Below are positions 2,925-42,048 of a stretch of 64,000 bases of DNA, in pieces. This DNA is from a virus. Each line of letters begins with the position of its first letter. Position 1 is the stretch's first letter. The translations under genes were made by a program, and so were the position numbers. Below the pieces are notes generated by a model. The model was not told the origin of the DNA. It saw nothing but the letters and a program-made list of their open reading frames with translations, and did no database searches. The stretch covers positions 1 through 64,000 of the IMG/VR virus record IMGVR_UViG_3300045946_000018; one strand, 5' to 3'.

Positions 2925-3143
2925 CAGTCCTCGCAAGATTTGTCCCTGCAGGGGCTAGGGATTATGATGCTGCACTGCGCTGCTTGTCAAGGATGCCCTT
3001 CGGGCGGAGGCTTCCTTGACAACCTGCTCGCTTGCAAAAGACAAAGGCGCCCCTGCCGGGAAAAATCTTGGGGCGGCCTGTAGCACGGTTGTGGCAAGCG
3101 GGTTCGCGTTGCTCACATCGGTGCTTTGGTTAATTCTTAACCA
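2925..3143 (-). repeat. Rod-hairpin promoter-mimic element E1 plus 17-bp palindrome
   Basis: Stems caagattt.tccc.gcaggggc/gcccctgc.ggga.aaatcttg and ttgtcaagga/tccttgacaa; TTGACA-18-CATAAT on the minus strand; palindrome at 3127-3143. Confidence 0.85.
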
Positions 3144-3577
3144 CAAGAAAGCAAATACTCCATCTTGCCAGCTTTGAATCCAACCAGCTCTAGCAAGCGT
3201 GCTGCACGCGGATTGCCTGTCAGTGCATGTATCCGCTCGCACCGTACAGTACATGCATACTCTCGCATGCTAGCTGTTGCATCACGCGCCAGCTCATCCG
3301 TCATTGTCTGGAAGCTGTAGAATGCGTCCACATGCAGTGATCGCACGTCAGTTAGGTTGTCCTCTACTATGCACGTGATTCCCATTGCGTACAGTTCCCG
3401 CTCGTCATCCATAATGAGCCAGGCTTGATGCGTGCTATTAAGCAGCGATATAAACAAGTTATTACTGTACTCACTCGTATTCGGGTCGAGTGGATCTAAT
3501 TCCATGGCAGCGATTGCCGCCGGCTTAATCTTGGCCCAGTACTCGCTCACCTGGTCTGGTTGAAGTTGTAGAATCAT
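3137..3577 (-). CDS. GNAT-fold-like virion assembly protein
   Basis: 146 aa with a C-terminal ...NPRAARLLELVGF pattern; position typical of podovirus tail modules; ortholog at 49559-49990. Confidence 0.55.
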   Translation of the reverse strand: MILQLQPDQVSEYWAKIKPAAIAAMELDPLDPNTSEYSNNLFISLLNSTHQAWLIMDDERELYAMGITCIVEDNLTDVRSLHVDAFYSFQTMTDELARDATASMREYACTVRCERIHALTGNPRAARLLELVGFKAGKMEYLLSCG

Positions 3578-4688
3578 GACTTACGCTCCCAGCAAAAGCG
3601 CTGATAGCAAGATTGCCTACGTAGGCACTCCTGCTAAAGCGCTGATCCGTAGTCTTGAAACTGATATTAATGTAGTCGACGTCGAGTCTAGCAACTCTAC
3701 GAGCACGCACTTTGATGCGAAAGTCAATGCCTGCACATGCAAGATAAGCAATTCCTTCAATGTTAAGACGTACCCAACGAGTAGATCTGAATGGCTGCTT
3801 TAGATCATAGCGGTAATCATAGGCTATTTCTAGCCACTCTGGAACATCAGTGCCTACCTGAATGTTAGTTAATGTTTTTTGCGAACGCCGACCGAAGTCA
3901 AGAATATCCGTGGTAAGTGAGAGTGGCTCATACTCAATTAGCTGCGGGGAGCTAACGAGTAGTGAACCACTCTCGTACACGTACCCGCTCAGCTTAGAGT
4001 AACCGTCACCCATACGGTCCTCTGCCAGTGTGAACCCGTGCTCACTGTCGCTGATAAGTACGTGCTTTATATACTCGTCATAGAACAGCACTGGATTAAT
4101 AAGTACTTTAAGATGCTCGCTGAAGTCCAGGTACGTTGCACCCTCAGGCGTTAGTTTCCATAATTGGTACTTTGCATCAATAAAGTAATGAATGAATTCT
4201 GTTCCACACACGGCGTCTTTAGATAGTAATCCTGTATATGCTAGATCACGAAAAGAGAATGTTGGTGCTGGACTTGAGACCGGCGACATAAGTGTAATGC
4301 CATTACTGCCATAAATCACGGCGCCGCGGCCTAGTTGTTTAATGGCAAGTACATCACCACGCCAATTCATTGGCCTGTATCCGGCATCGTTAACAGTATC
4401 TAGAACAAAGCTCGCTTCACCTATCTTACTCCAACCAACCCAGTTTCTACGAGAAGATTCAATTAATGCTTCGGCGCGCAACACTAAATTAAGGCTGATT
4501 ACATTGCCGCGTGCGACAGCGCCTTGAGGTATATAGCTGCCAATACGCAGTGATAGAACAATACGTGTCAGTTCTACTGGAATTGTTGCAGAAAGCGAGT
4601 GTCCGTCAAGGCGTGGCTCGAGCCTTATAGCGCCATCTTGATACAAGCATTCGAAAGTAACATTTAGTGCTGGATCAGCTACGCTCAT
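3525..4688 (-). CDS. Tail nozzle/stabilisation-like protein
   Basis: 387 aa, beta-rich; RRNWVGWSKIG conserved with 49926-51092; synteny. Confidence 0.55.
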   Translation of the reverse strand: MSVADPALNVTFECLYQDGAIRLEPRLDGHSLSATIPVELTRIVLSLRIGSYIPQGAVARGNVISLNLVLRAEALIESSRRNWVGWSKIGEASFVLDTVNDAGYRPMNWRGDVLAIKQLGRGAVIYGSNGITLMSPVSSPAPTFSFRDLAYTGLLSKDAVCGTEFIHYFIDAKYQLWKLTPEGATYLDFSEHLKVLINPVLFYDEYIKHVLISDSEHGFTLAEDRMGDGYSKLSGYVYESGSLLVSSPQLIEYEPLSLTTDILDFGRRSQKTLTNIQVGTDVPEWLEIAYDYRYDLKQPFRSTRWVRLNIEGIAYLACAGIDFRIKVRARRVARLDVDYINISFKTTDQRFSRSAYVGNLAISAFAGSVSHDSTTSTRPGERVLGQD

Positions 4689-5104
4689 AGTTCTACCAGT
4701 GGATTAGCTATAGTAAACGTACCGCTGTCATATGTAACGAGTGCGGCACCGAAGTCAATAAATCCTACCGTTGGCTTGCTTGCTAAAGTGTCGTCCAAGA
4801 TTATAGCACCTTGAGCAGTAATATCGCCGCCGGTTGCAAGCCAGCTAGGATTATTCCAAGTAGCGACTGTTACGTTAGCACCATCGTCGCGAGTCACCGT
4901 GCCGCCTGCAAGCGTTTGACCACCAGCTGTATAACCACTACCTGTTGTTAGTTCGTCTGCAGTCACATCAGCATACGTGTTATGTGTTGCACGGTTGAAA
5001 ACATAACCGGCTTTCATGAGTATTATCTTGAACACGTCTGCACCAAAGTCGATCCCCGCAGTCATCAATAAATACTTACAGTTATTAGATGGAAGTGTCG
5101 CCAT
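4685..5104 (-). CDS. Virion structural protein (likely start MATLPSN at 5104)
   Basis: ELTTG.GYTAGGQTL motif; ortholog at 51124-51552; AAGGAG RBS. Confidence 0.7.
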   Translation of the reverse strand: MATLPSNNCKYLLMTAGIDFGADVFKIILMKAGYVFNRATHNTYADVTADELTTGSGYTAGGQTLAGGTVTRDDGANVTVATWNNPSWLATGGDITAQGAIILDDTLASKPTVGFIDFGAALVTYDSGTFTIANPLVEL

Positions 5105-5105
5105 A

Positions 5106-8599: not shown

Positions 8600-8811
8600 C
8601 CAGCAGTCATTTATCCTGCGGAGGCAAGAGAGCCTAATCGCTTAATTGCTTCACTGTCAAGGGACGCTTCGCTGGGGACCCCTTGACAGCTCGCAAGTCG
8701 CGATTTGTCTCAAGATGCCTCCTACGGAGAAATGCCTGGGGCGGCTGGAAGCAGCAGAGACGTAGCCACAAGGGCGCCTCGTTGGGCGCAGCTGTGGTCA
8801 AACTTTAACCA
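8600..8811 (-). repeat. Rod-hairpin element E2 plus palindrome
   Basis: cattt.tcc..ggaggca/tgcctcc..gga.aaatg; ctgtcaaggg/cccttgacag; TTGACA-18-TAGGCT (minus strand); palindrome at 8795-8811. Confidence 0.85.
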
Positions 8812-9517: not shown

Positions 9518-9544
9518 AACGGTCCTATGGTTAGATTTTAACCA

Positions 9545-12044: not shown

Positions 12045-12271
12045 CGTTGCATTTATCCCTGCAGGAGGCTAGAGATTATATCACTACAGGGCACTAGTGC
12101 AGTCAACGCTTCGCGTGCTCCACTTCGTTCCGCCCCTTTGGGTGACTGCGTGCCCTTTCGTGAAGGGAGAAATTCGCCTCCTGCGGGAAAATGCATCGGG
12201 CGCGAGAAGCATCGGTCCCATAAGGGCTTCGCGCGTTGCTGCTCGCCAATCTTACGGTTAAACTTTAACCA
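12045..12271 (-). repeat. Rod-hairpin element E3 plus palindrome
   Basis: tgcattt.tccc.gcaggaggc/gcctcctgcgggaaaatgca; gcagtca/tgactgc; TTGACT-20-TATAAT with TGn (minus strand); palindrome at 12255-12271. Confidence 0.85.
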
Positions 12272-15770: not shown

Positions 15771-15787
15771 TGGTTAAAGTTTAACCA
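15771..15787. promoter_or_regulatory. Stand-alone perfect 17-bp palindrome TGGTTAAAGTTTAACCA (other stand-alone variants at 9528, 18930, 23009)
   Basis: Perfect inverted repeat at a gene boundary; 13 copies counted in phage A. Confidence 0.8.
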
Positions 15788-27849: not shown

Positions 27850-27901
27850 GTTAGCTTTGAGGAGGAGGCTGCGGCTTCCTCCTTTAAGGAGCGCGGCTAC
27901 T

Positions 27902-28123: not shown

Positions 28124-28325
28124 CGCACAACCGAAGCACAACGTGCGCTGCCTGCCACCAGCTGCTCTCTGTACTACCAGCGCGGTCGTTTTTCTTCCGA
28201 AGGGTGGCGCCTTTTCCCTGCGCGAAGGGAGTGTTTGTCAAGGCACTGCCTCCAGCGAAGCGGCCTTGACAAGCAAACGACCGAAGTGCTATAATCACTA
28301 GCCACCTTGAGGAAAGGAACGAGCT
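28104..28325 (+). repeat. Rod-hairpin element E6 plus palindrome
   Basis: tcgtttttcttcc..agggtggc/gccacctt..ggaaaggaacga; gtttgtcaaggc/gccttgacaagc; TTGACA-18-TATAAT with TGn; palindrome at 28104-28120. Confidence 0.88.
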
Positions 28326-28331
28326 GTAATT

Positions 28332-28541
28332 ATGGCGAACATAGATGACCTATCCATTCCAAGCCTCGAATCTCAAGGCTTGCAATTAATTCTCACCATA
28401 CGTGAGCGTAGACGATTCACGCCTGAGAAAGTACGCGAGAAGAAACTCCCGTCAGAAGCTATGCTCAATAAACTGAGCGATAAACAGCTCGCTGATCTCT
28501 ATTATACTCTAGCAGCCAAGATGCAAAAGGAGTTACTGTGA
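28332..28541 (+). CDS. Hypothetical protein
   Basis: 69 aa, overlaps the next start codon. Confidence 0.65.
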   Translation: MANIDDLSIPSLESQGLQLILTIRERRRFTPEKVREKKLPSEAMLNKLSDKQLADLYYTLAAKMQKELL

Positions 28542-29878
28542 AACTAGGAATCCTGCGCGTTGTTCCGATGTCTCAAATTGAAGTTGATCTAGATGCACGT
28601 GGGCGTCAGGCTTATGGTATTATACCTGAACTTGCAGCGTCCATACAGAAGCATGGACTAATTCACCCCATTGCAGTGTACTCAGCAAATGGTGAGCCAC
28701 CATATAAACTTGTTGCTGGTGGGCGTCGATTTATGGCTTGCACTGCACTGAAATGGGAAGAGATTAGTTGCCGCATATATGACACGCCAATGACTGAGCT
28801 GGAATTGAAGGCAGTTGAATTATTCGAGAATCTTGACCGTATGAATTTGAACTATGATGAAGAAGTGAAGATGAAAGAGAAGCTTCATCTAACACTGGTT
28901 GAAATTCACGGTAGGAAAATAGCAAAGACTGCAGATGCACCTGGACACTCAATACGTGATACGGCACGAACACTTGGTGTTAGTCATGCTACAGTCATAC
29001 AGGATATGAAACTCGCTGAAGCAATGCGCATTCTGCCTGAACTTGAATTGGATAAGGAGAAAAATAAGTCAGCTGCGATGAAAAAGCTGACACGATTTGC
29101 GAATGTTATCAGTAATAAGATGGCTGTGTCTGAAGCTAAGAAAGACGCCGTCCTTTCAGGCAGAATGACAAGCCCGGATGATCCACTCGCAGCCTACATA
29201 GTAGGAGATTTCTTCGAGAATAAACTCGCACCTAATCAGTTCAATTTTATAGAATGCGATCCGCCGTATGGAATTGATCTACCAGAGCAGCGAGCTGATG
29301 GTGAAACTGATTTCAGTTTGCAGCATGATTATAAGGAAATTTCTGGCCCGGATTATTTAATGTTCTTGAATAAGCTGCTCGAAGAATGCTACAAACTAGC
29401 GGCAGAGAATGCCTACATTATCCTCTGGTGCGGCCCGCAGCATTTGAATAGGGCACTGGACGCAATGAAGCGTGCAAAGTTCTCTACTGTTCATATACCT
29501 GGAATCTGGAAGAAAGGTGAAAGTGCTGGTCAGGCAATGGGCATGAGAACGAACCTTGGAAATGCGTATGAGATGTTTGTCTATGGACGTAAAGGTAATG
29601 CAGAGTTACGCAAGCAGGGCCGCTCAAATATATTTGACTTTAATGGAGTGCCATCATCACAGCGTATTCATCCTACAGAAAGACCACGGGCGCTAATGAA
29701 GGAACTCATTGATACCTTCGCTTGGCCCGGGTCAAATATACTAGTTCCATTCGCAGGAAGTGGAGTTACAATAGTCACGGCATTTGAACAGGGACATAAA
29801 GCCGTTGGCTACGATCTCAGTCAGAATTTCTACAATGCGTACGTGAAGCGTTTAGTTGAGGAGGTAACGGCTAAATGA
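28538..29878 (+). CDS. ParB N-terminal domain + HTH + N6/N4 DNA methyltransferase fusion
   Basis: LAASIQKHGLIHPI...LVAGGRRF...ENL.R; HTH SIRDTARTLGVSHATV; DPPY, HPTERP, PFAGSG. Confidence 0.9.
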   Translation: MKLGILRVVPMSQIEVDLDARGRQAYGIIPELAASIQKHGLIHPIAVYSANGEPPYKLVAGGRRFMACTALKWEEISCRIYDTPMTELELKAVELFENLDRMNLNYDEEVKMKEKLHLTLVEIHGRKIAKTADAPGHSIRDTARTLGVSHATVIQDMKLAEAMRILPELELDKEKNKSAAMKKLTRFANVISNKMAVSEAKKDAVLSGRMTSPDDPLAAYIVGDFFENKLAPNQFNFIECDPPYGIDLPEQRADGETDFSLQHDYKEISGPDYLMFLNKLLEECYKLAAENAYIILWCGPQHLNRALDAMKRAKFSTVHIPGIWKKGESAGQAMGMRTNLGNAYEMFVYGRKGNAELRKQGRSNIFDFNGVPSSQRIHPTERPRALMKELIDTFAWPGSNILVPFAGSGVTIVTAFEQGHKAVGYDLSQNFYNAYVKRLVEEVTAK

Positions 29879-30087
29879 TAGATGCTGATAGAACACTTAT
29901 ATTACTTAGACAAATAGAATCTCTAAGTAGAGAAGGCAAATTAGTAATTGCTGGATCACTGATAGATGCACTATATCCGAAGCCTATTCCCGAAATGGAT
30001 TTAGATATAGTATTTGCGTGCAAGCAAAAAGTGCTTAGTTGGATAGCACAACAACTAGGAGATAATGATGCCTTACGTTCCAGCTGA
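29875..30087 (+). CDS. Hypothetical protein with an NTase-like motif
   Basis: GGAGG RBS; IAGS...DLDIV. Confidence 0.5.
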   Translation: MIDADRTLILLRQIESLSREGKLVIAGSLIDALYPKPIPEMDLDIVFACKQKVLSWIAQQLGDNDALRSS

Positions 30088-32551
30088 TGGATCACTCAAC
30101 TCCAAAATAGCTATTGTTGGCGAGCAGCCGGCAAAGTACGAAGCTAGATACAGCAAGCCATTTACTGGCCCCGCCGGTCGTAATCTAAATGAGTGTTTGC
30201 AGAATGCTCGCATACCACGAGGTGGTTGTTATCTGACGAACGTAGTGAAACAAACTGAGTTTGAATTAGAACGCTATTTTAATTTGAAGGGTAAGAATCC
30301 TGCCGCGACGCAGCTAGGAAAGGCGTGTATAGAGGAGCTACGTGATGAGCTTATGGATTGTCGCGCTAACATCATTGTGCCTCTTGGCAATACTGCATTG
30401 TTCGCTCTATGTGATAGAACTGGCATTAATAGTTGGCGTGGAAGTGTGCTTGAGTCTACGCTTTTACCAGGGCGCAAAGTCATTCCTACATTGCATCCAG
30501 CTGTGTATACAGATGAGAAGGTACTACAGAACCCAGCTGCATACCTGGCTAAATATCTAATTACTATAGACCTTAAGAAAGTCCGTAGTGAGTCTGAATT
30601 TCCGGAGATTCGCTTAGCGGACAGAAGATTGAGGATCCAGCCAAACTTCTATGAAGCGCTTACATGGCTGGAGCGTTGTAAGGTACGTGCTGAGGATGGT
30701 GGAATTGTATACTATGATATAGAGTTAACACCAAAGACCCAAGAACTGAGTTGTATTAGCTTCTGCACATCGCCCGATGATGTAATGTGCATACCATTTG
30801 TAGATGCAAACGGAGACTATTTTACTGCTGAGCAAGAATACAAGCTAATGTTGAGCATTGAAGAATTGCTCAGCAATTCCAGCTGGATGAAAGGGGGACA
30901 GAATATTATCTTCGATTCGCACTTTCTATTACGCAAGTATGGTATACGCACTCGTAATATTGTTGCTGACACTATGGTAGCTCAGCATATACTCTACCCA
31001 GATTTCGGAGGTAAAACGTACCGTGGAAAATCACTTGAATTTATTACGTCAATGTGGACGGATATACCTTACTACAAACGTGACGGAAAGTTGTGGCTCA
31101 CTGGCATAGGCGACTACGCCAAGGGCTGGAATTATAACTGCCTAGATAGCGCAGTATGCGCTGATGCGTTTCCTAAACAGCTCACCGAGCTCGAAGAGCG
31201 TGGTAATTACGACTCGTATGAGCGACAAATAAAACTCATTGGACCTCTGAGTTATATGATGGAGCGTGGAATTAAAGTGGATAAAGAAGGAATGGAGCGA
31301 GCGTCCAGAGATGCTTTGTTAGAAGCTGATGAATTAACGCAACAAACGTTCGAGGTTATGGGCAGCTCGGCCTTTAACCTAAATAGCCCGCAGCAAGTAG
31401 CGGAATACTTTTATGGTAAGTGTGGAGTTACACCTTATTTAAATAAGAATGGCAAGCCTACTACAGATGAGGAGGCATTAACACGCATAGCGAATAAGGG
31501 ATTTAAAGAAGCTAGTATGATCCTCGAGATTCGACGTTTACGTAAGAAGGCATCAACATTTCTAAATGTCGAGAACGTTGACGATGATGGTAGGATGCGA
31601 TGTAGCTACAATCCAGTAGGTACACGATTCTCGCGGATTAGTTCGAGTGCAAATATATTCGGTACTGGTGGAAACTTACAAAATGTACCACATGATGTAC
31701 TGAGTTATTACGTCGCAGATTCTGGATACGTAATTTATTCACTTGATATGTCGCAGATTGAGGCGCGCATTGTCGCGTACGTTGGAAACATCACTCAAAT
31801 GAAGGAAGTATATGAACAAGGTCTGGATATACACAGACAAACGGGAGCACTCATTTTTAATAAGCCTTACGATGAAGTCAGTAACGCACCTGGATCGAGT
31901 ACCATTGGTAATGGAACTTACAGTGAGCGCGATTGGGCAAAGCGTGCCAACCATGCTTTCAATTACGGTTTTGGTTACAAGTCTTTCAGCTTGCTATATG
32001 AAATCCCTGAAAAAGAAGCTAAGTTCATTTATGATAGATACCATTCTGCTTATCCAGGACTTAGAGGTGGATACTGGAAGTATGTAGAAGGGTTGCTTAA
32101 GGCAACCCGTACGCTCACTAATCTATTTGGTAGAAGAATTACGTTCCTAGGAAAGCTTGATGATAAATTGCTCAATGAAGCTTACTCGTGTATACCGCAA
32201 GGAACATGTGGAGACCTAGTAAATGAGTGGGGATTGAACTTCGTTTATTATAACTCAGATGCGTTGTTCCAACGCGTGGAGCTGTTAACTCAAGTACATG
32301 ATTCAATTAGTATACAAGTGCCGCTGGATTTGCCACTGATAGATCACGCACGTATCTTGACTGCGATTAAGCGTTCTCTAGAACAGCCGCTGGAGTTCGG
32401 CAGAACCCAGTTTGTCGTGCCTGTTGATCTGGTAGTAAATAGTTGTCTCAACAAGAACAAAGGTATAGAGCTGAAAGGCACGAAGTTTAGTAATGATCCT
32501 CGTGTACTGGAAGTGTATTTACAGGACGCTATTCTAACACTGGGAGTTTAA
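30065..32551 (+). CDS. DNA polymerase family A with N-terminal uracil-DNA-glycosylase-like and 3'-5' exonuclease domains
   Basis: IVGEQP, YLTNVVK, PTLHPA; YDIE, QNIIFD, YNCLD; DMSQIEAR, AKRANHAFNYG, QVHDS. Confidence 0.95.
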   Translation: MMPYVPADGSLNSKIAIVGEQPAKYEARYSKPFTGPAGRNLNECLQNARIPRGGCYLTNVVKQTEFELERYFNLKGKNPAATQLGKACIEELRDELMDCRANIIVPLGNTALFALCDRTGINSWRGSVLESTLLPGRKVIPTLHPAVYTDEKVLQNPAAYLAKYLITIDLKKVRSESEFPEIRLADRRLRIQPNFYEALTWLERCKVRAEDGGIVYYDIELTPKTQELSCISFCTSPDDVMCIPFVDANGDYFTAEQEYKLMLSIEELLSNSSWMKGGQNIIFDSHFLLRKYGIRTRNIVADTMVAQHILYPDFGGKTYRGKSLEFITSMWTDIPYYKRDGKLWLTGIGDYAKGWNYNCLDSAVCADAFPKQLTELEERGNYDSYERQIKLIGPLSYMMERGIKVDKEGMERASRDALLEADELTQQTFEVMGSSAFNLNSPQQVAEYFYGKCGVTPYLNKNGKPTTDEEALTRIANKGFKEASMILEIRRLRKKASTFLNVENVDDDGRMRCSYNPVGTRFSRISSSANIFGTGGNLQNVPHDVLSYYVADSGYVIYSLDMSQIEARIVAYVGNITQMKEVYEQGLDIHRQTGALIFNKPYDEVSNAPGSSTIGNGTYSERDWAKRANHAFNYGFGYKSFSLLYEIPEKEAKFIYDRYHSAYPGLRGGYWKYVEGLLKATRTLTNLFGRRITFLGKLDDKLLNEAYSCIPQGTCGDLVNEWGLNFVYYNSDALFQRVELLTQVHDSISIQVPLDLPLIDHARILTAIKRSLEQPLEFGRTQFVVPVDLVVNSCLNKNKGIELKGTKFSNDPRVLEVYLQDAILTLGV

Positions 32552-32554
32552 GAA

Positions 32555-33040
32555 ATGACAAACAAGGAATTTGCTAGATTCTGTAAATACTTCGTTGTAA
32601 TGACAGACGACGCAGAACAAAGTCATAGAGTATGCTGGTTATGGATAGGTGCTTTAACGGAGGGATATGGATTTCTTAAAGTCAAAGGTAAGAATATAAG
32701 AGCACACCGACTTATGTATGAGCACGTATATGGTGAGATAAAGGAAGATTACGTAATACATCATAAGTGTCACAACAAGCGTTGTGTAAGCCCGTTTCAT
32801 CTAGAAATGGTAACACGCGAACATAACGTTAGTGAAGCCCAAACTAAGACACATTGTAAGCGTGGACATGAGCTATCCGATGATAACGTACATATGTATA
32901 GAGACAAATACGGAAAGTTTAGAAGATACTGCAAGAAATGCGCTTCAAATTCAGCACGTAATAGATATGCGGCTCGTACTTTAGTTGATAAATTAACGGA
33001 TGAAGATATAGCTAAATTGATGAGTCTAAAAGGAGAATAA
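32555..33040 (+). CDS. HNH homing endonuclease
   Basis: CWLWIG, RAHRLMY, HHKCHNKRCVSPFHL, KTHCKRGH. Confidence 0.93.
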   Translation: MTNKEFARFCKYFVVMTDDAEQSHRVCWLWIGALTEGYGFLKVKGKNIRAHRLMYEHVYGEIKEDYVIHHKCHNKRCVSPFHLEMVTREHNVSEAQTKTHCKRGHELSDDNVHMYRDKYGKFRRYCKKCASNSARNRYAARTLVDKLTDEDIAKLMSLKGE

Positions 33041-33042
33041 GA

Positions 33043-34242
33043 ATGGCGAGACACTTGAGTAATTTCCTGGATGCTTATCTCTACTTTACCGAAGAAACTG
33101 AGCCATGCGAGCTTTACCGCAAGTGGGTAGGAGTCAGCATTATTGCTGCAGCATTGCAGCGGAAATGTTACTTGCATTGGGGCTCGCAGATTTGGTATCC
33201 TAATCTGTACATAGTATTAACCGGTCCTCCAGGTGAGCCGCGTAAGGGTACAGCTATGGCTTCTGGCTACAGCATTCTGAGACCGCTCAATCTAAAGCTA
33301 TCTGCAGACCGACTGTCACCTGAGTATTTTATAAAAGAACTCAGTGCCTCACTCACTACAACGCAGCTGGGCAATGGTAAGTTTATAAATCACTGCAGTA
33401 TGACAATCTTCAGCAGTGAGTTGACAGTATTTCTGGGATATAAGAACTCGCAGTTCTTAGCTGATTTAACTGACTTGTATGATTGTAAGGATCCATGGGC
33501 GTACAGGACTAAAAATAGTGGGCACTTTGAAGTAACAGGTGCATGGCTAAATATGTTGGCTGCAACCACACCTGAGCAAATACAAGCAGCATTGCCAATT
33601 GAAGCAATAGGAGGTGGCTTTGCAAGTCGAGTGTTATTTATATTCGCTGATAGGAGAGGTAAAACTGTCCCTATGCCAATAGAGAACGAAGAACTTAAGG
33701 CGAAATTAAGAAGCGATTTAGAAGAGATTTCGTTGTTAGCTGGTCCATTTGTTGCTACAGAAGATTACATACTCACTCGCACTGAGTGGTATTTGAACGA
33801 GTCTCAGGAGAACCAAATAATTCAGGATCCAAGATTCGCTGCGTATTATAGCAGGAAAGCGAGCACTGCAACAAAGCTCAGTATGATACTCTGCGCGTCA
33901 CGTAGCGACGATATGAAGCTGAGAGGTGAGGATTTCGTTAACGCAATCGATATGCTTAATGAAGCTGAGATACAAATGCCACGTGCATTAAGTGGCGTTG
34001 GTAGGAGTGATTATGCTGAGCTGCTTCCAATGGTAATGGAAGAAATACTGAGACATAAAGAGGTGACTATAAGGTATTTGATGAACCGATTTTCGCACGA
34101 TACGACGTACTTCCATTTGATTAAGATGGTAGAAACACTTGAGATTATGGGCGTTTTGAGTTACGCTCCATTAACTAAGAAGATATATGCGAATCCTAAC
34201 TTCGGGAATAGTTCGAGTGGAGAAAGTGCGGTTGTCAATTGA
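33043..34242 (+). CDS. DUF3987-like P-loop NTPase (putative replicative helicase)
   Basis: PNLYIVLTGPPG..RKGT, SELTVFL, GGFASR; follows the polymerase. Confidence 0.7.
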   Translation: MARHLSNFLDAYLYFTEETEPCELYRKWVGVSIIAAALQRKCYLHWGSQIWYPNLYIVLTGPPGEPRKGTAMASGYSILRPLNLKLSADRLSPEYFIKELSASLTTTQLGNGKFINHCSMTIFSSELTVFLGYKNSQFLADLTDLYDCKDPWAYRTKNSGHFEVTGAWLNMLAATTPEQIQAALPIEAIGGGFASRVLFIFADRRGKTVPMPIENEELKAKLRSDLEEISLLAGPFVATEDYILTRTEWYLNESQENQIIQDPRFAAYYSRKASTATKLSMILCASRSDDMKLRGEDFVNAIDMLNEAEIQMPRALSGVGRSDYAELLPMVMEEILRHKEVTIRYLMNRFSHDTTYFHLIKMVETLEIMGVLSYAPLTKKIYANPNFGNSSSGESAVVN

Positions 34243-34451
34243 GGCCGGAAGACTCCGCTGGACCGCTGCTGATTATAGCACTTACGTTGCCTAATGCTGT
34301 CAAGGACCCGCTACGCTGGGGATCCTTGACAGCGGCAACTCCAGTGCAGAGAGTAGACGCGGTCCGGCGGAAAAATCTGCCGGCCTGGAAGTATGGAGAG
34401 TTGCTGGCAGCCGCACTCCCGTTGGTCGTGAGTATGGTTAAAATCTAACCA
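34242..34451 (-). repeat. Rod-hairpin element E7 plus palindrome (at the early/late convergence)
   Basis: aggccgg.aga.tccgctggaccgc/gcggtccggcgga..tct.ccggcct; gctgtcaagga/tccttgacagc; TTGACA-20-TATAAT with TGn (minus strand); palindrome at 34435-34451. Confidence 0.88.
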
Positions 34452-34455
34452 TAAA

Positions 34456-37400
34456 CTATCTTCTCTCACGTCTCTCTGAGCGTTCACGTCTCGCTCCTCT
34501 TGTTGGCTCCTGCGAATACCAGCCCATCAAACTGTCGTAAACATTCTCACCGCGCTTTTGTGCTCTAGTAAACTTACTTATTTGACGGGTGCCAGGTACA
34601 CCTAAAAGTGTAGCTGTTGGTTCCCACCACGGCGGGCTGAGTGGATCATTTCTGTAGGCGCGTGCAGCATCTCGTGCTGTTTCTATTGCAGGCCCGGCTA
34701 TTCCTTTACCGTACCTCATGCCACCTATAATAGGCAGTCTCTCTATTTGTCCTACCGCCAAATCAAGCGCAAGTTGTGGTAGTGAATGTCTAGCCTGCAT
34801 TCCTTTCCGCACATCTTCAACAGGATCAGGTAACGCTGGTTGAATGTGCAGCAGTTTGTACAACTCGTTAATGATCTGGGTGATGATGAGGAATCCAATT
34901 ACGTTGCGCATAAATCTCATATTACTGCGTGGTGCTCCAGGCTCTTCCCAACTGCCAGGACCACTGGCTACTCCACCTGGAGGTATCTGCCCACCACCTC
35001 CACCACCAATCTTACCTTTAGTGAGCACTTCGTCTCGCAGGAAATTGAAGTCACTAATCAAGAACGTCTGGAATTGCGTGACAAGTTTACCTAATGGGTT
35101 ACGCTGTATGCCTGCAAGATCGCCTGGCATCGTACTTCCTTGCGTACGCACCACAAGATCGTCTGCGTAGCGTACAGCATCCTTATGATTGTATCCGACC
35201 TTCGGACTCGTGGCGAACTTGTAGCCGGCGTTCCACGTAACAAGTGCAGCTTCCATATCCAGCAATTCAATCAGCTTGAATCCTGGCCGGCCAACCATTT
35301 GCTGCAGTTCAGCTAAGTTACCTCTGCCTAAGGCACGAAATAATTCTCCTGGTCGTCTACCTACGAATGCACTAGTAACTTCATTGTAGGCATCAATGAA
35401 CTTACGTGAGCTGAGTATCTCACTGTTACGTAATGCGAAATCCTTCTTCTTGCCTAGTGGTAAATCGGCTAACATCTCGAATGCTGATCCTAGTGTCTTT
35501 GGTATACCAAGTGTTTGGCTAGTATTTACCAATGTAGACAGCTGGATTGTACCTGATCTTATAAGCCCAGATAGTGTAGCGTACGCAACGTTCTTGTTGA
35601 CAGTATTTAGTATCATCCGCTGCGTTGCAGTGAATTGCTTGTTTGTACCGGTTGCAATATAGTCAGTCCAGTTACGTAGCTCTTCATACAGGCCTGGTTT
35701 ATTGTCCTTAAGTTGCCACGTCTCTTTACCAGTAACAGGATCAGGTAAGTTAGTTTCAATAAGCTCATGCATCTTCGCAATGAATGGACTCATGTGAATG
35801 TCCTTCAGCGCCGATTGAGCATAAGTATCAAGTATTTTTAGTGCGTTCATTTCGGCCGTGTAGAATGCATGCTTGCGTACAATGTACGGGAAGTTTGTTG
35901 CTCGATGTTTGATGTACTTTGCGTGCACAGAATCGGAAGTATCGCGGGCAAGATCTACTTTAATACCAAGCGCATTCAGCACGTTTATTGTGCGCGCGAA
36001 GGTTTGGTAGTCATCCACTCGTGCAAGTGGCTCACGTCCAGTTGCAGCACGTACTTCATTTACTCGATTATATAAGTAAGCATAAACACCATCAAGATTT
36101 GCCTGCAATCGCCGCTCAGCAGAAGTAAGCGGCTGAGGTGTGACCTTATTATATGTAAGTATTCGTTGCCCGTCTCCACCTTGACGCGCATAACCATTAG
36201 CGCCAATATTCTCTAGTGATTTTGAACTGAAGCCACGACCTAATTCTTCCATATCTGCGTGTAAAGTATTCAGCTCGGCATTCAGGTTCTTTTGTGCAGT
36301 GCGATACGCATAGTAGAGAAATTCTGTACCTGCTGCTTTGTGCTGGCGCAATGGTAGCTTTAAGTTCCACTCACCACCACCCGGCTTAATGTCACGTGCA
36401 TTCTGAATGCCTCGCACCTCACTCTGCCACAAAGGTACGTACGTATTGCCACTTGCAACGCGCTGCTTAACAACTCTATCTCCTGGAATTACGTTCTCAG
36501 GATCGAAGCGCATATTACGCGGATTCGTTGAGTTTGGAGGTTCAGGATTATTGATACCTTCTAGGTACCGCTCAAACATTGCTACATCTTCAGGACGTGC
36601 ACCAAACAGAAATTCTCGTACGTTCTTTCCTGCCTTACGCATATCAGCTTGCAATCGCTGAGCGGCCATACGTGCTTCACGAGACCAGTTACCTCCTATT
36701 GCACCTTCCTCACCAAGCATAGTATTCACATCATTCAGTATATCTATGAACGCCCTACGCTCAGACGTGTCAATGCCAGCTCTTGCTGATTCGCGCATAG
36801 CTTTGTAGTGAGGTATCAAATCAGCCGGCAATTTATCTGTAATATCCACGCCTTGCTCTATAGCACGTAACATTTCTTCTATTTGTTCCGGACCAATAGG
36901 TGATGTTTTACTCTCAACGTATGCACCTGCAGCGTCCTTAGAAATCGGGACAGCTCGTAGATCGTCACCACTGTTAAGACGAGCATCAGTCCTGACAACG
37001 TCCTTAGGAACGAGTTCATAGTTCCTGCCCTTCATTACGTATAAATCAAGGTCATTCTCTGCAGCAACACGAGTTGCTTCACGTATCAGTTCTTGGCCAG
37101 TAAACTCATGTGCACGCTCGATTGGTAGACCAGTAAAATCAGCTTGTGCTTGTAAGGAACGTTTTAATACCTGCCCTAATTCAGGGCTCGTTCTTCCTCG
37201 CTGTATCTCAAGCTCAATATTTGCAAGTGATGTACGGGCGTTCATTCCTCTAGTATCAACGAAAATAGCATCAGGCCTGCCTTCTATAGTACGTACTTGT
37301 ATTGGTGCTGATGATATAAGCTCTGTGTACTTAAAGGGTAATATAGATGCCTTAGCACTGGGTTCTAAATTAGTAACGGATTTTATTTCAGTGAAACCAA

Positions 37401-39993
37401 CATTCGTGACTACAGGACGGGTATATGCATAGTAAGCTGTATCCGCCGTACGTCTTGCTACATCTTCAGGCAGTCCCATACTGATAAGAGTTTGTCTCAG
37501 TTGTGATGGTCGCACTCCTTTACTAAAAGCATCCATGACGTCGGCCAGATTCATGCCTATTTGCTGCAGTGTTTCTTGAATTTCTTCTTTAAATGACTCT
37601 ACATTCTTACGCACGGCGCGTTCTTCAAAAACGCTTTGTTCTGCTGCGGCACGTGATTCTGGAGTACTTGTCTCATATATAGGTCTACGAGTGGGCCTAT
37701 TTATAAGAGGCTCTGTATCTGGCGCTTTCACTACCTTACGTTTACGTTTAGGCTTCTCAATGACAGGAGATGTATCTATTACTGGTTCTGCAGGTGCAGG
37801 TATTTCTACTTCAGTTCCTGCCGGTGCGTTTTCTAGTACAGCTTCAGTTGCTGCTTGCTGAACAGCTGGCTTATTGACGGTATAATAACGAGTGTAATTA
37901 CCTTGCTTTACTTGAGTTATACTACCTTCATTCAGAAGATTTTGAATTGCTTCATTAACTTCACTACGTGCAAACCCCACTCTATTTACTATAGCTTGTA
38001 TTGTAGCCCCACCTTCCCGAGATAGAAAATCCCTCACTGCTCCACTAACATCTGAAACTGGCATTTCAGATAGCTCAGATAAACTGCTCTCCACAATTCC
38101 TCTTTCAGACTTCGCAGCGCGTACTTTTTTAAGTTGTGGTATTAACTCCTGAATTGTTTCCTCATCTACACCAAGCTGCCGTAATCCACGCTCTACGCTT
38201 TTCGCGTCAGTATTAAGAGCTTCACGTTTCAAGTTTGCTAACGACGTTTTACGATCAGCTGGACTTGTTTCCTCATTTTGAATTGCTTCTATTGCCGCGA
38301 ACGCAGGCCCTCTATATTCAGTGCGAGTAGGAGTTATTACTTCTGGAGCCGTAGGCGATACCGCAGCTACTGCTGGAGTCTCGGGTGAAACTGGTGCTGG
38401 TACAGTTTCAGGAGCAACAGTAGCTGCAGCCTCAACACGTGGTGTTTCGATAGGTGCAATTTCACGAGTCGGTCTTGGTGCCTCAGGCGTAACAGGAGCT
38501 AAAGCTGTCTCACCTCGCACTACAACTTCAGGCTGCACTGGCCGCTCAGCAGTCATAGTTGGTGCTGCACGCTGAGGTTCAGGTGCGCGTTGAGCTTGAG
38601 GCTCAGCTGACCTTGGTGCTTCAGGTGTAGGAGCAGCAGGTCTTGCAGCTTCAGGCGTTGGTGTTGGGCGCGTAGGCTCAGCAGGAGCTCTAGGTGTACC
38701 TTGTGGTTTAGGTACGCGGCCTAAGCGCTCTCGTAAATCCGTCATGATACTGCCTCTATTTGGATCAGCTGCCCATTCATCCGTTACACGATCTAGCTCT
38801 GATTTGTACGCACGCAATTCAGCTGGATCATATACTATATCTGCAGCAGCTCCACCACCAGCTGGCCCTTCATCCGGCGGCTTAGGTCCTCGTGGTGGCA
38901 TGCCGACTTCACGATCAGCTTCATCTCTAAACTTTCCACGAGCTTCTTCAAGCGCGTTATTTAGTCGAGGATTTTTTGATGCTGCATTCGCAAGATCTTC
39001 TGCAGCTGCTGCGGCTTGCGCGTCAGTTGTAGCACGTGACATACGAGTTTTGTATTCAGCAATCTTTGAGCGTATTTCTGGAGCAGCTTTGCGTACGCCC
39101 TGATCTAGCTTGTAGAATAGATAAAGTTCAGTGGCAAAGCTAAGCACTCGAGCTGTATCCTCGTTAAGTACGCCTGTTGCCACAAGTGCGCGACCAGGTA
39201 GTTCAGCTACATCCTTAATTAAACCGGTTACAGTGCCTACAGCTTTATTTACGTTCTTTGCAATATCTGAGCGTGGTTCAGGAGTTAGTGACGTAATGCG
39301 CTGATCCATTCGGTTGAATATATCACGGTAATGAGTTTTACTTTCGGGCCCACCGGCCATTGGTCCGCCACGTGCAACACGTGCAAGTTGAGTATTCAAA
39401 ATATCGCTAACTGCAGTTGCAGCACCAAATGCAAATGCTCCAGCACCGGCGAGTACATTACCACCAGCTTCGGCAATATCGCGCACAAAATTCGTGGATC
39501 GTTGCAGCGTACCATATAATCCAGGAGAGTATTGTCGCGTCGGCGTTGCTCCTGGTGCTCCAGGCTGAAGGTCACGTCTGCTAGTATAACGCTGTGACTC
39601 TGGAGCTTGAGTAGGAACTGTGCGAATTCCACTAAAACTTCCAGTGCCGGTATATTCGCGTGTTGTATCTGGTACTAATTTTTCAGCTACCGATCCAATA
39701 GCTGAACCAACATCACTTGCTATTTTGCCAGGATCTATACTAGGTAGATAGCCAGAAATTCCTGTGCCTGATGGTTCTGCAGGCGGCACGTATTGAGGCG
39801 GCAATTGACCAGGGCTGAGCCTCTGCTCAGCGGGTAAGCCGCTATTATAGTTATTTAATAATGCTTCATTCAAGTCCGGCTTCTTAGGAGCAAGCGGCGT
39901 TTTGCCTATTCCTAAGCGTCCAAGTAATTCTTCATTTTCTGGCTCACCTTGAAGAAGGTAGCGTTCTACGTCAATAGGTGCGACTGTTGACAT
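34456..39993 (-). CDS. Large internal virion / ejection protein (1845 aa)
   Basis: Last late gene; Pro/Ala/Glu-rich linker; C-terminal RYADDLV.RTQG...TQFQTF region and a hydrophobic segment. Confidence 0.7.
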   Translation of the reverse strand: MSTVAPIDVERYLLQGEPENEELLGRLGIGKTPLAPKKPDLNEALLNNYNSGLPAEQRLSPGQLPPQYVPPAEPSGTGISGYLPSIDPGKIASDVGSAIGSVAEKLVPDTTREYTGTGSFSGIRTVPTQAPESQRYTSRRDLQPGAPGATPTRQYSPGLYGTLQRSTNFVRDIAEAGGNVLAGAGAFAFGAATAVSDILNTQLARVARGGPMAGGPESKTHYRDIFNRMDQRITSLTPEPRSDIAKNVNKAVGTVTGLIKDVAELPGRALVATGVLNEDTARVLSFATELYLFYKLDQGVRKAAPEIRSKIAEYKTRMSRATTDAQAAAAAEDLANAASKNPRLNNALEEARGKFRDEADREVGMPPRGPKPPDEGPAGGGAAADIVYDPAELRAYKSELDRVTDEWAADPNRGSIMTDLRERLGRVPKPQGTPRAPAEPTRPTPTPEAARPAAPTPEAPRSAEPQAQRAPEPQRAAPTMTAERPVQPEVVVRGETALAPVTPEAPRPTREIAPIETPRVEAAATVAPETVPAPVSPETPAVAAVSPTAPEVITPTRTEYRGPAFAAIEAIQNEETSPADRKTSLANLKREALNTDAKSVERGLRQLGVDEETIQELIPQLKKVRAAKSERGIVESSLSELSEMPVSDVSGAVRDFLSREGGATIQAIVNRVGFARSEVNEAIQNLLNEGSITQVKQGNYTRYYTVNKPAVQQAATEAVLENAPAGTEVEIPAPAEPVIDTSPVIEKPKRKRKVVKAPDTEPLINRPTRRPIYETSTPESRAAAEQSVFEERAVRKNVESFKEEIQETLQQIGMNLADVMDAFSKGVRPSQLRQTLISMGLPEDVARRTADTAYYAYTRPVVTNVGFTEIKSVTNLEPSAKASILPFKYTELISSAPIQVRTIEGRPDAIFVDTRGMNARTSLANIELEIQRGRTSPELGQVLKRSLQAQADFTGLPIERAHEFTGQELIREATRVAAENDLDLYVMKGRNYELVPKDVVRTDARLNSGDDLRAVPISKDAAGAYVESKTSPIGPEQIEEMLRAIEQGVDITDKLPADLIPHYKAMRESARAGIDTSERRAFIDILNDVNTMLGEEGAIGGNWSREARMAAQRLQADMRKAGKNVREFLFGARPEDVAMFERYLEGINNPEPPNSTNPRNMRFDPENVIPGDRVVKQRVASGNTYVPLWQSEVRGIQNARDIKPGGGEWNLKLPLRQHKAAGTEFLYYAYRTAQKNLNAELNTLHADMEELGRGFSSKSLENIGANGYARQGGDGQRILTYNKVTPQPLTSAERRLQANLDGVYAYLYNRVNEVRAATGREPLARVDDYQTFARTINVLNALGIKVDLARDTSDSVHAKYIKHRATNFPYIVRKHAFYTAEMNALKILDTYAQSALKDIHMSPFIAKMHELIETNLPDPVTGKETWQLKDNKPGLYEELRNWTDYIATGTNKQFTATQRMILNTVNKNVAYATLSGLIRSGTIQLSTLVNTSQTLGIPKTLGSAFEMLADLPLGKKKDFALRNSEILSSRKFIDAYNEVTSAFVGRRPGELFRALGRGNLAELQQMVGRPGFKLIELLDMEAALVTWNAGYKFATSPKVGYNHKDAVRYADDLVVRTQGSTMPGDLAGIQRNPLGKLVTQFQTFLISDFNFLRDEVLTKGKIGGGGGGQIPPGGVASGPGSWEEPGAPRSNMRFMRNVIGFLIITQIINELYKLLHIQPALPDPVEDVRKGMQARHSLPQLALDLAVGQIERLPIIGGMRYGKGIAGPAIETARDAARAYRNDPLSPPWWEPTATLLGVPGTRQISKFTRAQKRGENVYDSLMGWYSQEPTRGARRERSERRERR

Positions 39994-40012
39994 TTACGTT
40001 TCCTCTGCTAGC

Positions 40013-40234
40013 GGCATTTCTCCCTGCAGGTGCAAGAGAGTGTAGTTCCTTTGTGGAGAACCTGCTAGAGAAAAATGCGGGGCCATTTTTCTCTTGCAGA
40101 ACCTCCAGTCGTCACAACACGGGAATTGCCCCTGCTGGGAAAATGCCATCGCGCCGGTAGCACAAGAGAGATCAGCGGCACTAGGGCTCCCGTTGGTCGC
40201 AGCTTCATCTCCAGCTATGGTTAAAATCTAACCG
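40013..40234 (-). repeat. Rod-hairpin element E8 plus palindrome
   Basis: ggcattt.tccc.gcagg.gcaa/ttgc.cctgc.gggaaaatgcc; ctgc.agagaaaaatg/catttttctct.gcag; degenerate CTAGCA-18-TACACT; palindrome at 40218-40234. Confidence 0.8.
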
Positions 40235-40242
40235 TAACAATC

Positions 40243-41205
40243 TTACTCTTTGGGCCTGAGTTTCCAGGGTATCGGCTGCTTTAAGCTTGGATAAAATACT
40301 TGCTCAAGGTATTGTTGCACGTTCATTGCGCCACTAGGGTAATTCTGAGCTGCGTCATAAACCTCTTGGGCCGTATAGCGATGACCATCTACAGTAGGCA
40401 AATCTATCTTCTTCATTCGAGTACCTGAATAGATGCGGCCAGGATTATCCTCAAAGATATACACGTACGGCTGTTTGCTTGTCGCATGAAACAGCTCAGC
40501 TTCAGGTGCTAATTCACTCTCATCGTACGAGTTCTGTAGTGCATAGCCACCAGGTCTCTTCGAGCGTAGATTCTGTTCTGCATCTGTTGCTACTTTCATC
40601 TCAGTGCGAGCATCCGTGCGCGCTTTAGCTATTTTCTCTGCACGCTCTTTCTCGAGCTGCATCATCTTCTGTATATTCTCGTTACGCTCTTGAGCAAGTG
40701 TCATTCCTTTGGCTGAGAACTCCTGACCACCGATCTTCAGCTTTACGTATTCATCATTCTGTTTATCTAGCAGTGCAGCCTCTCTCGGATACAGTTGACG
40801 GATGCGCTCAGCATTGGCATTGCTGGCATTAACAGCTGCCATACTTTGCTCAATATTAGCTCGTATGTTCTGCTTCTCTAAACCGAGCAGCTCAGTAACG
40901 CGGTTTGATTGTGCTTGATACAGGCCTGTCTGTGCACGCTCCTGTGCAACGCGTTCTGGCAACAGTGTTTCGGTACTGATTCGCTGAGCACGACTCGCAC
41001 CAGCTGCTTCACGTGACTGGTCAATATCCGCAAGCATCTTAGCGGCAATGTGAGGCTCTTCTGCACGTAACCGTGCTGCCTGCGCTTTATTCAAATCACC
41101 TGAAGTTTCACGGTACGCAATCTCACTTTGTACATTACGTGCCTGTATAATGTCCTGCACGCTGCGTAGTCGCAGTGCTTCTCGTTCTGTGTCGAGTCGG
41201 CCCAT
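40243..41205 (-). CDS. Putative ejection protein (frame stays open upstream to about 41283; probably reached by a -1 frameshift)
   Basis: Helical A/E/Q/R-rich; weak RBS; open upstream extension LLSPGGFESGSLAGLNPEQVAA. Confidence 0.7.
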   Translation of the reverse strand: MGRLDTEREALRLRSVQDIIQARNVQSEIAYRETSGDLNKAQAARLRAEEPHIAAKMLADIDQSREAAGASRAQRISTETLLPERVAQERAQTGLYQAQSNRVTELLGLEKQNIRANIEQSMAAVNASNANAERIRQLYPREAALLDKQNDEYVKLKIGGQEFSAKGMTLAQERNENIQKMMQLEKERAEKIAKARTDARTEMKVATDAEQNLRSKRPGGYALQNSYDESELAPEAELFHATSKQPYVYIFEDNPGRIYSGTRMKKIDLPTVDGHRYTAQEVYDAAQNYPSGAMNVQQYLEQVFYPSLKQPIPWKLRPKE

Positions 41206-41225
41206 AGCTGCAACCTGTTCTGGAT

Positions 41226-41277
41226 TAAGCCCCGCAAGACTTCCACTTTCAAATCCTCCGGGGCTTAGTAGAAAGGG
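41226..41277 (-). other. Candidate -1 programmed ribosomal frameshift signal
   Basis: C CCT TTC heptamer in frame (41277-41271) followed by the hairpin taagccccg...cggggctta. Confidence 0.7.
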
Positions 41278-41825
41278 GCAATATCTAGTATGCTGGGATC
41301 ACGTCTAGCTGCAGCAGTTCTTATTGGTGCTGGTGCATTAGTTACGGGAACTGGAGCCGTAGTAGCTGGAGTAATCACGGGTGCTGTCTGTGTACGTGCA
41401 GGTGGCTGAGCTGGTGCTACGTTAGTCGGTCTGGTTGCTGCAATGTCACGAAGCGTATTTGAGAATGCACCGTACTCCGGCGTGCTCGTAATATTTCGTG
41501 GCTCAGGCAAGTTGAGGTCGAATGTGTACGAGCCAGATGGCGTTGCCTTAACGCTGTTCAGACCAGGACGGTCTGGCTTCGTGATGCCACCGTGCAAGTC
41601 AATAAGCTGTTTAATTTGTGCTGATCGCGCCGCGTCGCGTTTCTCGATGGCAGATTGAGCGGCTTTACTGCTAATCATATTTGCAGCGGCGGTACCAATT
41701 ACTCCACCTGCACCCTCAGGGTCCATTTGCCTACCCATGTTCGCGAGCAGTAACTGGAAGTTGGGATCACTTAACATACCGCTAAAACTCCACGGTTGCT
41801 GTGTGGCTGCTGAACCTTCTGCCAT
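41265..41825 (-). CDS. Putative ejection protein
   Basis: 186 aa, Gly/Ala-rich N-terminus, P/T/A-rich tail; AAGGA RBS. Confidence 0.7.
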   Translation of the reverse strand: MAEGSAATQQPWSFSGMLSDPNFQLLLANMGRQMDPEGAGGVIGTAAANMISSKAAQSAIEKRDAARSAQIKQLIDLHGGITKPDRPGLNSVKATPSGSYTFDLNLPEPRNITSTPEYGAFSNTLRDIAATRPTNVAPAQPPARTQTAPVITPATTAPVPVTNAPAPIRTAAARRDPSILDIAPFY

Positions 41826-41837
41826 GATAAATTCCTT

Positions 41838-42048
41838 TGGTTAAAGTTTAACCACAACGCACCGACGCGCAGTATAGCGCGCCACTGACTCTCTTGGTAC
41901 TTCCCACCGCCGCAGCCTTTCCGATCGGGCCACCCATCCCTTCCACAGCGTAGGGTAGCGCTTGTCAAGCATCCCAGCGGAGCGGATGCTTTACAAGCAA
42001 GCGTACCGAAGCGACAATCCCACGGGTGGCACGAGAGGAGCTAAGGCG
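41838..42048 (+). repeat. Rod-hairpin element E9 plus palindrome
   Basis: gccaccc/gggtggc; gcttgt.aagcatcc/ggatgctt.acaagc; TTTACA-17-GACAAT (antisense to neighbours); palindrome at 41838-41854. Confidence 0.8.

Follow-up and report, generated by a model that had tools for sequence, protein, structure and literature searches.

Promoter-bearing hairpin elements in a soil podophage, possibly usable by host RNA polymerase in folded-DNA form

The 64,000-nt stretch of viral DNA analyzed here (IMG/VR record IMGVR_UViG_3300045946_000018, positions 1–64,000; hereafter the window) carries nine intergenic elements, E1–E9, in each of which promoter hexamers of the host sigma-70 type are enclosed in a long hairpin. 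What is such a hairpin for in a tailed phage with a double-stranded DNA (dsDNA) genome? A preliminary description of the same sequence had read the elements as promoters opened in advance by folding, serving either as distributed priming sites or as sources of 6S-like RNA. The structure of the elements, its conservation, its DNA-type features and its patchy distribution among related phages are established below. We tentatively interpret the element as a mobile accessory promoter cassette usable by host RNA polymerase in folded-DNA form, in the manner of Frpo or the N4 promoters.

Architecture and conservation of the elements

Read along its promoter-bearing strand (the element strand), every element consists of a 17-bp palindrome, a linker hairpin, and a rod of 135–155 nt. 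The palindrome adjoins the neighboring gene within 0–17 nt, and its motif, GGTTR-N5-YAACC, occurs 11 times against 0.08 expected, an over-representation of about 140-fold. Counting a one-mismatch variant in E2, there are 12 palindromes in phage A, the genome that fills the window to about position 46805, nine with rods and three solo. The linker hairpin (48–85 nt) bears the motifs GAGCAACGCGA and GTGCTTCC. The rod has a conserved base, ATTTTYCC...GGRAAAAT, and an apical stem in which TGTCAA pairs with TTGACA, the -35 hexamer being paired in all copies; CCTTGACA is found 13 times where 1.6 would be expected, and most of these form mirrored pairs within rods.

Folded as single-stranded DNA, the rods give z-scores of -2.9 to -9.0, with at most one of 200 shuffles folding as well, and the described fold is obtained for all nine elements whichever strand is taken. 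A covariance model built from them (R1) scores the nine at 131–163 bits; together with the folding, this confirms both their reported positions and their common layout. The model finds 12 further full-length copies, at 62–110 bits, in related IMG/VR and JGI contigs. On 19 copies, its 32 pairs are 82.8% paired, compared with 70.5% for shuffled and 35–51% for slid partners; both sides are altered in 23 of the 32, and none of 500 shuffles attains the observed values. The stems thus change while pairing is kept, as had been claimed. Because the copies are kin, this covariation shows maintained pairing, not independent events. Such compensatory maintenance of pairing and hexamers implies a function for the phage, and since pairing is needed over the long term, a plain duplex promoter is ruled out.

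Seven copies, which we call open, reveal the geometry most clearly: E1, E3, E6, E7, E9, and the copies G002:42169 and G003:28807 of two sister genomes. Their -10 hexamer begins 0–1 nt from the edge of an internal loop of 7–12 × 7–12 nt that also includes 5 nt past the hexamer, so that the bubble covers approximately -12 to -2 (in E7 it is divided by a 2-bp helix). The 5′ strand of the loop is pyrimidine-rich, and the duplex closing the rod measures 17–25 bp. While the spacer in the 3′ arm varies between 17 and 20 nt, the opposing segment of the 5′ arm is constant at 15–16 nt; the excess is located in 2–4-nt bulges just below the -35, and the folded 20-nt spacers of E3, E7, and G003:28807 thereby attain a near-canonical helical distance. 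The preliminary picture of a pre-opened sigma-70 hairpin is upheld as structure by the -12 to -2 bubble, the constant 5′ arm, the closing duplex of about 20 bp, and the strand-specific apex described next. An unpaired -10 had been claimed for the whole family; this applies fully to E1, E3, E4, E6, E7, and E9, whereas in E2 (TAGGCT), E5, and E8 the hexamer is partly paired or weak.

The apex distinguishes the two strands. The sequence C-GNA-G caps the promoter strand in 17 of 22 copies, compared with 3 of 22 for the other strand, where about 0.09 per apex would be expected from a background of 0.0035 per nt. It appears mostly as GCGAAGC, GCGTAGC, GCGGAGC, CCGAAGG, or CCCGTAGGG. GCGNAGC and CCGAAGG are extraordinarily stable DNA mini-hairpins that bind SSB poorly and have been reported at the G4 complementary-strand origin, RSF1010 ssiA, and an N4 hairpin promoter (PMC13037366). 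GNA apices are not standard RNA loops, and the motif is that of DNA rather than an RNA tetraloop; at the anti-oriented E9 and G003:28807, mRNA of the neighboring genes would bear its complement. The G-U pairs show no strand excess (51 on the element strand vs. 46 on the other), and the wobble bias that had been remarked on in E6 is therefore not general. Fold energy shows no significant strand bias either, the element strand being the more stable in 14 of 19 rods. Taken together, apex strand, bulge-trimmed spacers of 18–20 nt, G-U symmetry, and DNA hexamers favor, on sequence grounds, a fold of the promoter-strand DNA, a case that falls short of proof because the family shares ancestry.

RNA contigs from four soil metatranscriptome runs, covering 20400–40399, are sparse and unstranded and may reflect DNA carry-over or assembly breaks. 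One spans the whole of E6 (28053–28446). Contig starts at 28192 and 28199, from two studies, lie near the E6 rod base and a contig end at 40016 coincides with the E8 rod base; all of these are faint hints at best.

Competing explanations for the fold

The cassette holds a host sigma-70-type promoter preceded by about 70 nt forming an imperfect inverted copy of it, so that the promoter strand can fold into a hairpin resembling an open complex. The folded form has the -35 in duplex, a spacer helix cut to about 16 bp by the bulges, and an 11-nt bubble from -12 to -2; some 20 bp of downstream duplex close the rod, and a DNA mini-hairpin triloop caps it. In the interpretation that we favor, host RNA polymerase would use this fold when the strand is single-stranded, as on the lagging-strand template or in recombination intermediates; alternatively, the fold may be extruded by supercoiling. 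Judging from the geometry, the 5′ arm would act as template, with exit through the linker and palindrome, and the product would be a short RNA or primer, which at anti-oriented copies would read as sense RNA for the flanked genes. When the DNA is duplex, these hexamers with 17–18-nt spacers probably serve as ordinary internal promoters, and their RNA would have the reverse polarity.

Given the DNA-type apex, a bubble from -12 to -2, spacing corrected by the bulges, and a closing duplex the size of a footprint, no other single interpretation does as well as a folded-DNA promoter; E7, at a site where no gene can be driven, counts for it too. From these features, we infer that RNA polymerase may bind and initiate on the folded form and that its product may have a role. 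It is possible, if somewhat doubtful, that this tailed dsDNA phage runs host sigma-70 RNA polymerase on promoter hairpins folded on single-stranded replication or recombination intermediates or by supercoiling, coupling RNA synthesis to the state of the DNA. The RNA so coupled would consist of primers, of short antisense RNAs, or of sense RNA from flanked cassettes, MazG among them.

Orientation does not decide the matter. Fifteen of 21 copies aim at a downstream gene and end just before its ribosome-binding site, five are antisense, and E7 sits in a convergent junction; genes lie 5′ of the hairpin on the folding strand in only 5 of the 21 (E4, E9, and three copies in relatives). Each antisense copy belongs, as the upstream member, to a divergent pair arranged as rod-linker-palindrome, gene or genes, palindrome-linker-rod, and such pairs enclose MazG, the gene pair at 40243–41825, and small genes in G003. 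E4, E7, and E9 had all been described as antisense to their neighbors, which is correct for E4 and E9, E7 instead filling its convergent junction. GC skew is compatible with replication that is co-directional with transcription; if it is, the lagging-strand template contains the co-oriented copies, and RNA made there in folded mode would be polarized like an Okazaki primer. Ordinary promoters fit these counts too. Genes run leftward up to about 16.3 kb, rightward up to 34.2 kb, and leftward again thereafter; the skew tracks these blocks (minimum near 12 kb, maximum near 34 kb) and thus cannot separate co-orientation with genes from placement on the lagging-strand template.

Several observations weigh against a folded-DNA promoter. 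Sister genome G001 has the same PolA and DUF3987 genes (80% amino acid identity) yet no rod, and since sisters with the same replication genes (polymerase, helicase) carry 0–2 copies, any role of the elements is dispensable. Eight of 19 copies, including E2, E5, and E8, form a semi-closed class with a weaker, partly paired -10. Of the six copies with spacers of 20–21 nt, four possess an extended -10 (TGn) that in duplex could dispense with a -35. The orientation of the 15 co-oriented copies is explained by a duplex promoter with no fold, and folded-mode RNA would be antisense there, being sense for the flanked genes only at the other five. Finally, common descent means that features common to the copies are not independent.

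The proposal of distributed priming sites as a required system does not hold. Because G001 lacks any copy (G002 has one and G004 two), the elements cannot be the obligatory primase substitute of the phage. The observation that had motivated the proposal stands: domain scans found neither a primase nor an RNA polymerase domain in any open reading frame (ORF) scanned.

The main rival, which we consider possible without favoring it, is a cassette of the PeSL kind, in which a duplex promoter for the downstream gene is combined with an RNA hairpin that acts as an attenuator or as an RNase III site insulating modules. The unpaired -10 would then have a single cause: were it mirrored beside the mirrored -35, a divergent antisense promoter would arise. 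In T4-type phages, a PeSL unites a sigma-70 promoter with a stem-loop that acts as a terminator, and PeSLs are shuffled between phages (PMC2839356); the co-oriented majority stopping short of the ribosome-binding site agrees with this. So do the Watson-Crick pairing, by which RNA folds in both orientations, and a rod in a second phage of the window, phage B, that retains the fold without a promoter. Palindromic -35 promoters are also common in phage contigs: the pattern TGTCAAGG-N-CCTTGACA-N-ATAAT occurs in 97 viral stretches (IMG/VR loci L075-L153), above a rough chance estimate, and in 28 of 77 distinct cases both strands have a -10, giving back-to-back promoters (e.g., L088, L107, and L133). 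Such a cassette does not account for GNA triloops, a DNA motif that tracks the promoter strand even in anti-oriented copies, or for a bubble extending 5 nt past the hexamer, more than avoidance of a mirrored -10 needs. No U-tract follows the rod, and a consensus terminator scan flags only one small site, inside E4. Spacers of 20–21 nt are poor in duplex, and E7 as well as all five anti-oriented copies are without a gene to drive.

A general class of long foldback phage promoters was considered and rejected, since none of the 97 stretches matches R1. Pairing beyond the -10 in palindromic -35 promoters elsewhere amounts to 7.0 pairs, compared with 6.9 in shuffled controls, indicating that the long foldback is specific to this family. 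A look-alike occurs in an unrelated 4.2-kb viral contig (L108:2860-3040), in which the -35 and spacer are paired, the -10 falls within an internal loop, and about 16 bp of duplex close the structure; chance may explain it.

A selfish or recombination-driven mobile element is, in our judgment, unlikely as the whole explanation, and it may overlap with the other interpretations. Here the palindrome would be a landing or crossover site and the hairpin would aid spread, through recognition of the single-strand hairpin or short-homology recombination by the phage exonuclease and AAA_24 ATPase, with a promoter that is incidental or outward-facing as in Correia elements. The distribution is indeed patchy. 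Across five syntenic genomes, in which most proteins are 55–90% identical, phage A has 9 copies, G003 6, G004 2, G002 1, and G001 none. Orthologous junctions can hold the palindrome alone (E1 and E7 sites in G002), nothing (E1 and E3 in phage B; E2 in G001 and G002), or a different structured module (E1, E3, and E7 sites in G001), and the copies sit where related phages differ by insertion, deletion, and replacement. E1 and G003:29289, at different sites, have exactly the same 37-nt promoter arm; the E1 apex is identical to that of L060:16705; a single site has three different arm types in three phages; and inverted pairs surround MazG and other genes.

Against spread as the sole explanation, no transposase was found, no gene tracking copy number was found among the compared genomes, and no target-site duplication is visible between filled and empty sites, whose flanks are about 25% diverged. 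Copies are only 60–75% identical pairwise, near-identical ones not being seen, and orthologous copies are often reciprocal best matches (E9/G002:42169 and G003:42041/G004:18449), indicating long vertical retention. Pairing and hexamers are, moreover, kept by compensatory change. It is very improbable that the rods yield discrete 6S-like RNAs sequestering sigma-70 RNA polymerase, as had also been suggested: a rod with a central bubble resembles the outline of 6S RNA, but Rfam scans at the gathering cut-off and at E ≤ 1, 6S covariance models included, match no element, the apices are DNA-type triloops, TTGACA and TATAAT are DNA signals read on B-form DNA that 6S RNA does not need, and no dedicated promoter or terminator brackets the rod.

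The individual elements and the genome that carries them

The hexamers and spacers of the nine elements agree with those first listed. E1 (2929–3143, minus strand; 162.9 bits, z -5.7) comprises a palindrome at 3127–3143, a linker hairpin at 3074–3126, and a rod at 2929–3073, with the -35 TTGACA at 2985–2990 and the -10 CATAAT at 2961–2966 separated by 18 nt, and aims at the downstream gene at 2039–2911. It had been drawn from 2925, and 2925–2928 proves to be ordinary upstream sequence common to phage B. E2 (8600–8811, minus; z -4.6) has its variant palindrome at 8795–8811, linker at 8745–8794, and rod at 8600–8744; the -35 (8655–8660) and the weak -10 TAGGCT (8631–8636) lie 18 nt apart in a semi-closed rod with a small bubble. 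E3 (12045–12271, minus; z -7.4; palindrome 12255–12271, linker 12199–12254, rod 12045–12198) has the -35 TTGACT at 12101–12106 and TGaTATAAT with the -10 at 12075–12080, and its 20-nt spacer contains a 4-nt bulge.

The next two elements form a divergent pair around the MazG-like gene at 21042–21374. The left half, E4 (20788–21025, minus; z -5.0; palindrome 21009–21025, linker 20924–21008, rod 20788–20923), is antisense to its neighbors, with the -35 at 20837–20842, the -10 CATAAT at 20814–20819, and a spacer of 17 nt. The right half, E5 (21381–21604, plus; z -9.0; palindrome 21381–21397, linker 21398–21453, rod 21454–21604), has the -35 at 21545–21550, the -10 CATAAT at 21572–21577, and a spacer of 21 nt. 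E6 (28104–28325, plus; z -2.9; palindrome 28104–28120, linker 28121–28183, rod 28184–28324) lies upstream of the ParB-methylase/PolA/DUF3987 genes, its -35 at 28266–28271 being followed after 18 nt by TGcTATAAT (-10 at 28290–28295).

E7 (34242–34451, minus; z -8.3; palindrome 34435–34451, linker 34387–34434, rod 34242–34386) occupies a convergent gene junction and drives no gene either way; its -35 is at 34298–34303, TGcTATAAT places the -10 at 34272–34277, and the 20-nt spacer again has a 4-nt bulge. E8 (40013–40234, minus; z -6.8; palindrome 40218–40234, linker 40148–40217, rod 40013–40147) lies upstream of an 1845-aa gene, with a -35-like CTAGCA at 40063–40068, the -10 TACACT at 40039–40044, and an 18-nt spacer. 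Its partner around the genes at 40243–41825 is E9 (41838–42048, plus; z -3.9; palindrome 41838–41854, linker 41855–41907, rod 41908–42048), which is antisense to its neighbors, has the -35 TTTACA at 41990–41995 and the -10 GACAAT at 42013–42018 with a spacer of 17 nt, and is represented by an orthologous copy in G002 at 42169–42380. Ordinary rod-free promoters with 17–18-nt spacers, which the preliminary description had also mentioned, were found at six positions (16538, 16740, 16806, 21826, 22553, and 23895).

The three solo palindromes lie at 9528–9544, between the capsid gene stop and the next start codon; at 15771–15787, 17 nt upstream of the start of a 504-aa ATPase gene that is probably the large terminase; and at 23009–23025, where the palindrome overlaps a stop codon and precedes by 15 nt a GIY-YIG endonuclease gene present in phage A only. 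Solo palindromes thus stand at gene boundaries, 10–17 nt before start codons or on stop codons, and may be sites for a dimeric DNA- or RNA-binding protein. The palindrome sequence is conserved in phages with 73–84% capsid identity and not in those at about 55% (relatives L001-L009). At the E3 site, G001 (L047-L049, 47240-47480) and G002 (L050, 11553-11816) have in common a well-conserved intergenic module of about 250 nt that starts with the palindrome, stops just before the start codon, and lacks sigma-70 hexamers.

Phage A has a podophage-like genome from a soil metagenome; the window is 45% G+C. A second, related phage, B, starts at 46806 and runs to the window end at 64000, beginning a new genome whose 46.8–64 kb are the counterpart of the structural genes at 1–17 kb (about 73% nucleotide identity). 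A 133-bp stretch at both ends of A (1–133 and 46806–46938, 96% identical) joins the two in tandem, an arrangement that could be a chimeric assembly or two co-assembled strains. The family had been called genome-wide, which is accurate for phage A; 46806–64000 belongs to phage B and has a different type of rod. This rod (55252–55429, minus) occupies the site orthologous to E2 in the same palindrome-linker-rod order, with the base CATTTTTTC...GAAAAAATG and apex GCGGAGC as in the family, and has no -35 and -10 in promoter arrangement. Just upstream of the phage B capsid gene, 58531–58669 (minus) gives a weak Rfam group I intron match that, at 33.7 bits (E 8e-5), falls short of the gathering score of 50.

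Phage A encodes an SU10-type capsid and portal, a UDG-PolA fusion, a DUF3987 P-loop protein, a ParB-HTH-methylase, a PD-(D/E)XK nuclease, an AAA_24 ATPase, the MazG-like gene, two HNH endonucleases, and one GIY-YIG endonuclease. The last three (GIY-YIG and two HNH genes; 23040–23459, 26871–27335, and 32555–33040) are likely homing endonucleases, as they are missing from most sister genomes. The 1845-aa protein (34456–39993, minus) resembles polyvalent virion proteins and contains a winged-helix segment; a language-model search places it near “large polyvalent protein” phage clusters, and it has no match in the PDB. The idea that it is a hidden RNA polymerase was rejected, finding no support in scans. 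The closest isolated relative is Desulfofustis phage LS06-2018-MD01 (capsid 52% amino acid identity), and Pseudomonas 119X/PaP2-type phages are distant relatives. The region 20500–30400 is almost complete in soil metagenome runs of many studies, indicating that the phage is widespread in the sampled soils; the element family is so far limited to a small clade of soil phages.

Comparison with known promoter and hairpin systems

The known promoters on folded single-stranded DNA come from conjugative plasmids, filamentous phages, and N4, and each is linked either to a special polymerase or to a stage that is obligately single-stranded. Searches of isolated phages by megablast and blastn returned no match to the elements, a blastn search of 72,556 plasmids with E6, the only element tried, gave none either, and no account of comparable elements in tailed phages turned up in the literature searched.

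Correia elements of Neisseria form RNase III-sensitive hairpins in mRNA. Like the present family, they are small inverted-repeat elements with promoter hexamers whose presence varies between genomes; their terminal repeats, TA target duplication, and nearly identical copies are not seen here. At the M13 minus-strand origin and rolling-circle plasmid ssoA, host RNA polymerase recognizes promoter-like hairpins on single-stranded DNA and makes a short primer. The likeness lies in promoter-like hairpins for the host enzyme, but those are single sites on obligately single-stranded replicons, whereas here many dispensable copies are carried in a duplex genome.

The N4 early promoters, DNA hairpins extruded by supercoiling, are similar in having GCGGAGC or a GAA/GGA triloop on a short G/C stem, and here, too, promoter recognition would depend on folded DNA. 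N4 hairpins have just 5–7 bp and are read by a virion RNA polymerase, whereas the present hexamers are those of host sigma-70; no N4-type virion RNA polymerase was detected among the ORFs scanned. The PeSLs of T4-type phages (PMC2839356, PMC4122927) are likewise repeated intergenic sigma-70-type promoters with an overlapping stem-loop; they lie just ahead of start codons, border accessory genes, and pass from one related phage to another. Their stem-loops may overlap the -35 or -10 (PMC2839356) but are short G/C-rich terminators in a unit of about 100 bp; in the present elements, which belong to an unrelated phage lineage, the entire promoter lies inside a 45–50-bp hairpin whose bubble falls at the -10, and a separate 17-bp palindrome and a linker hairpin accompany it.

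There is also a likeness to Frpo and related ssi sequences of conjugative plasmids (Masai and Arai 1997; PMC11541004), in which a folded DNA strand shows a -35 and -10 to host sigma-70 RNA polymerase. An element has several of these hairpins, whose size, in the hundreds of nucleotides, is similar to that seen here and whose definition likewise involves structure plus hexamers. They differ in that the carrier here is a dsDNA tailed phage, for which single-strand entry is not known, that the -10 is left unpaired rather than rebuilt as duplex, and that in just 5 of 21 copies do genes lie where transcription from the folded form would lead.

Should the elements prove to be only promoter/attenuator cassettes, they would extend the PeSL idea of regulatory units that are mobile to an unrelated phage group and a much larger structure. 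If instead the folded-DNA promoter is real, an ordinary dsDNA podophage bears many hairpins copying open-complex geometry for the host enzyme, a new way to link transcription or priming to replication state, and these would provide natural pre-melted promoters for the study of -10 reading by sigma-70. The sister phages with 0, 1, 2, 6, and 9 copies are clear test cases. With a folded-DNA promoter, the family would be the phage equivalent of plasmid Frpo, in the form of a promoter opened in advance.

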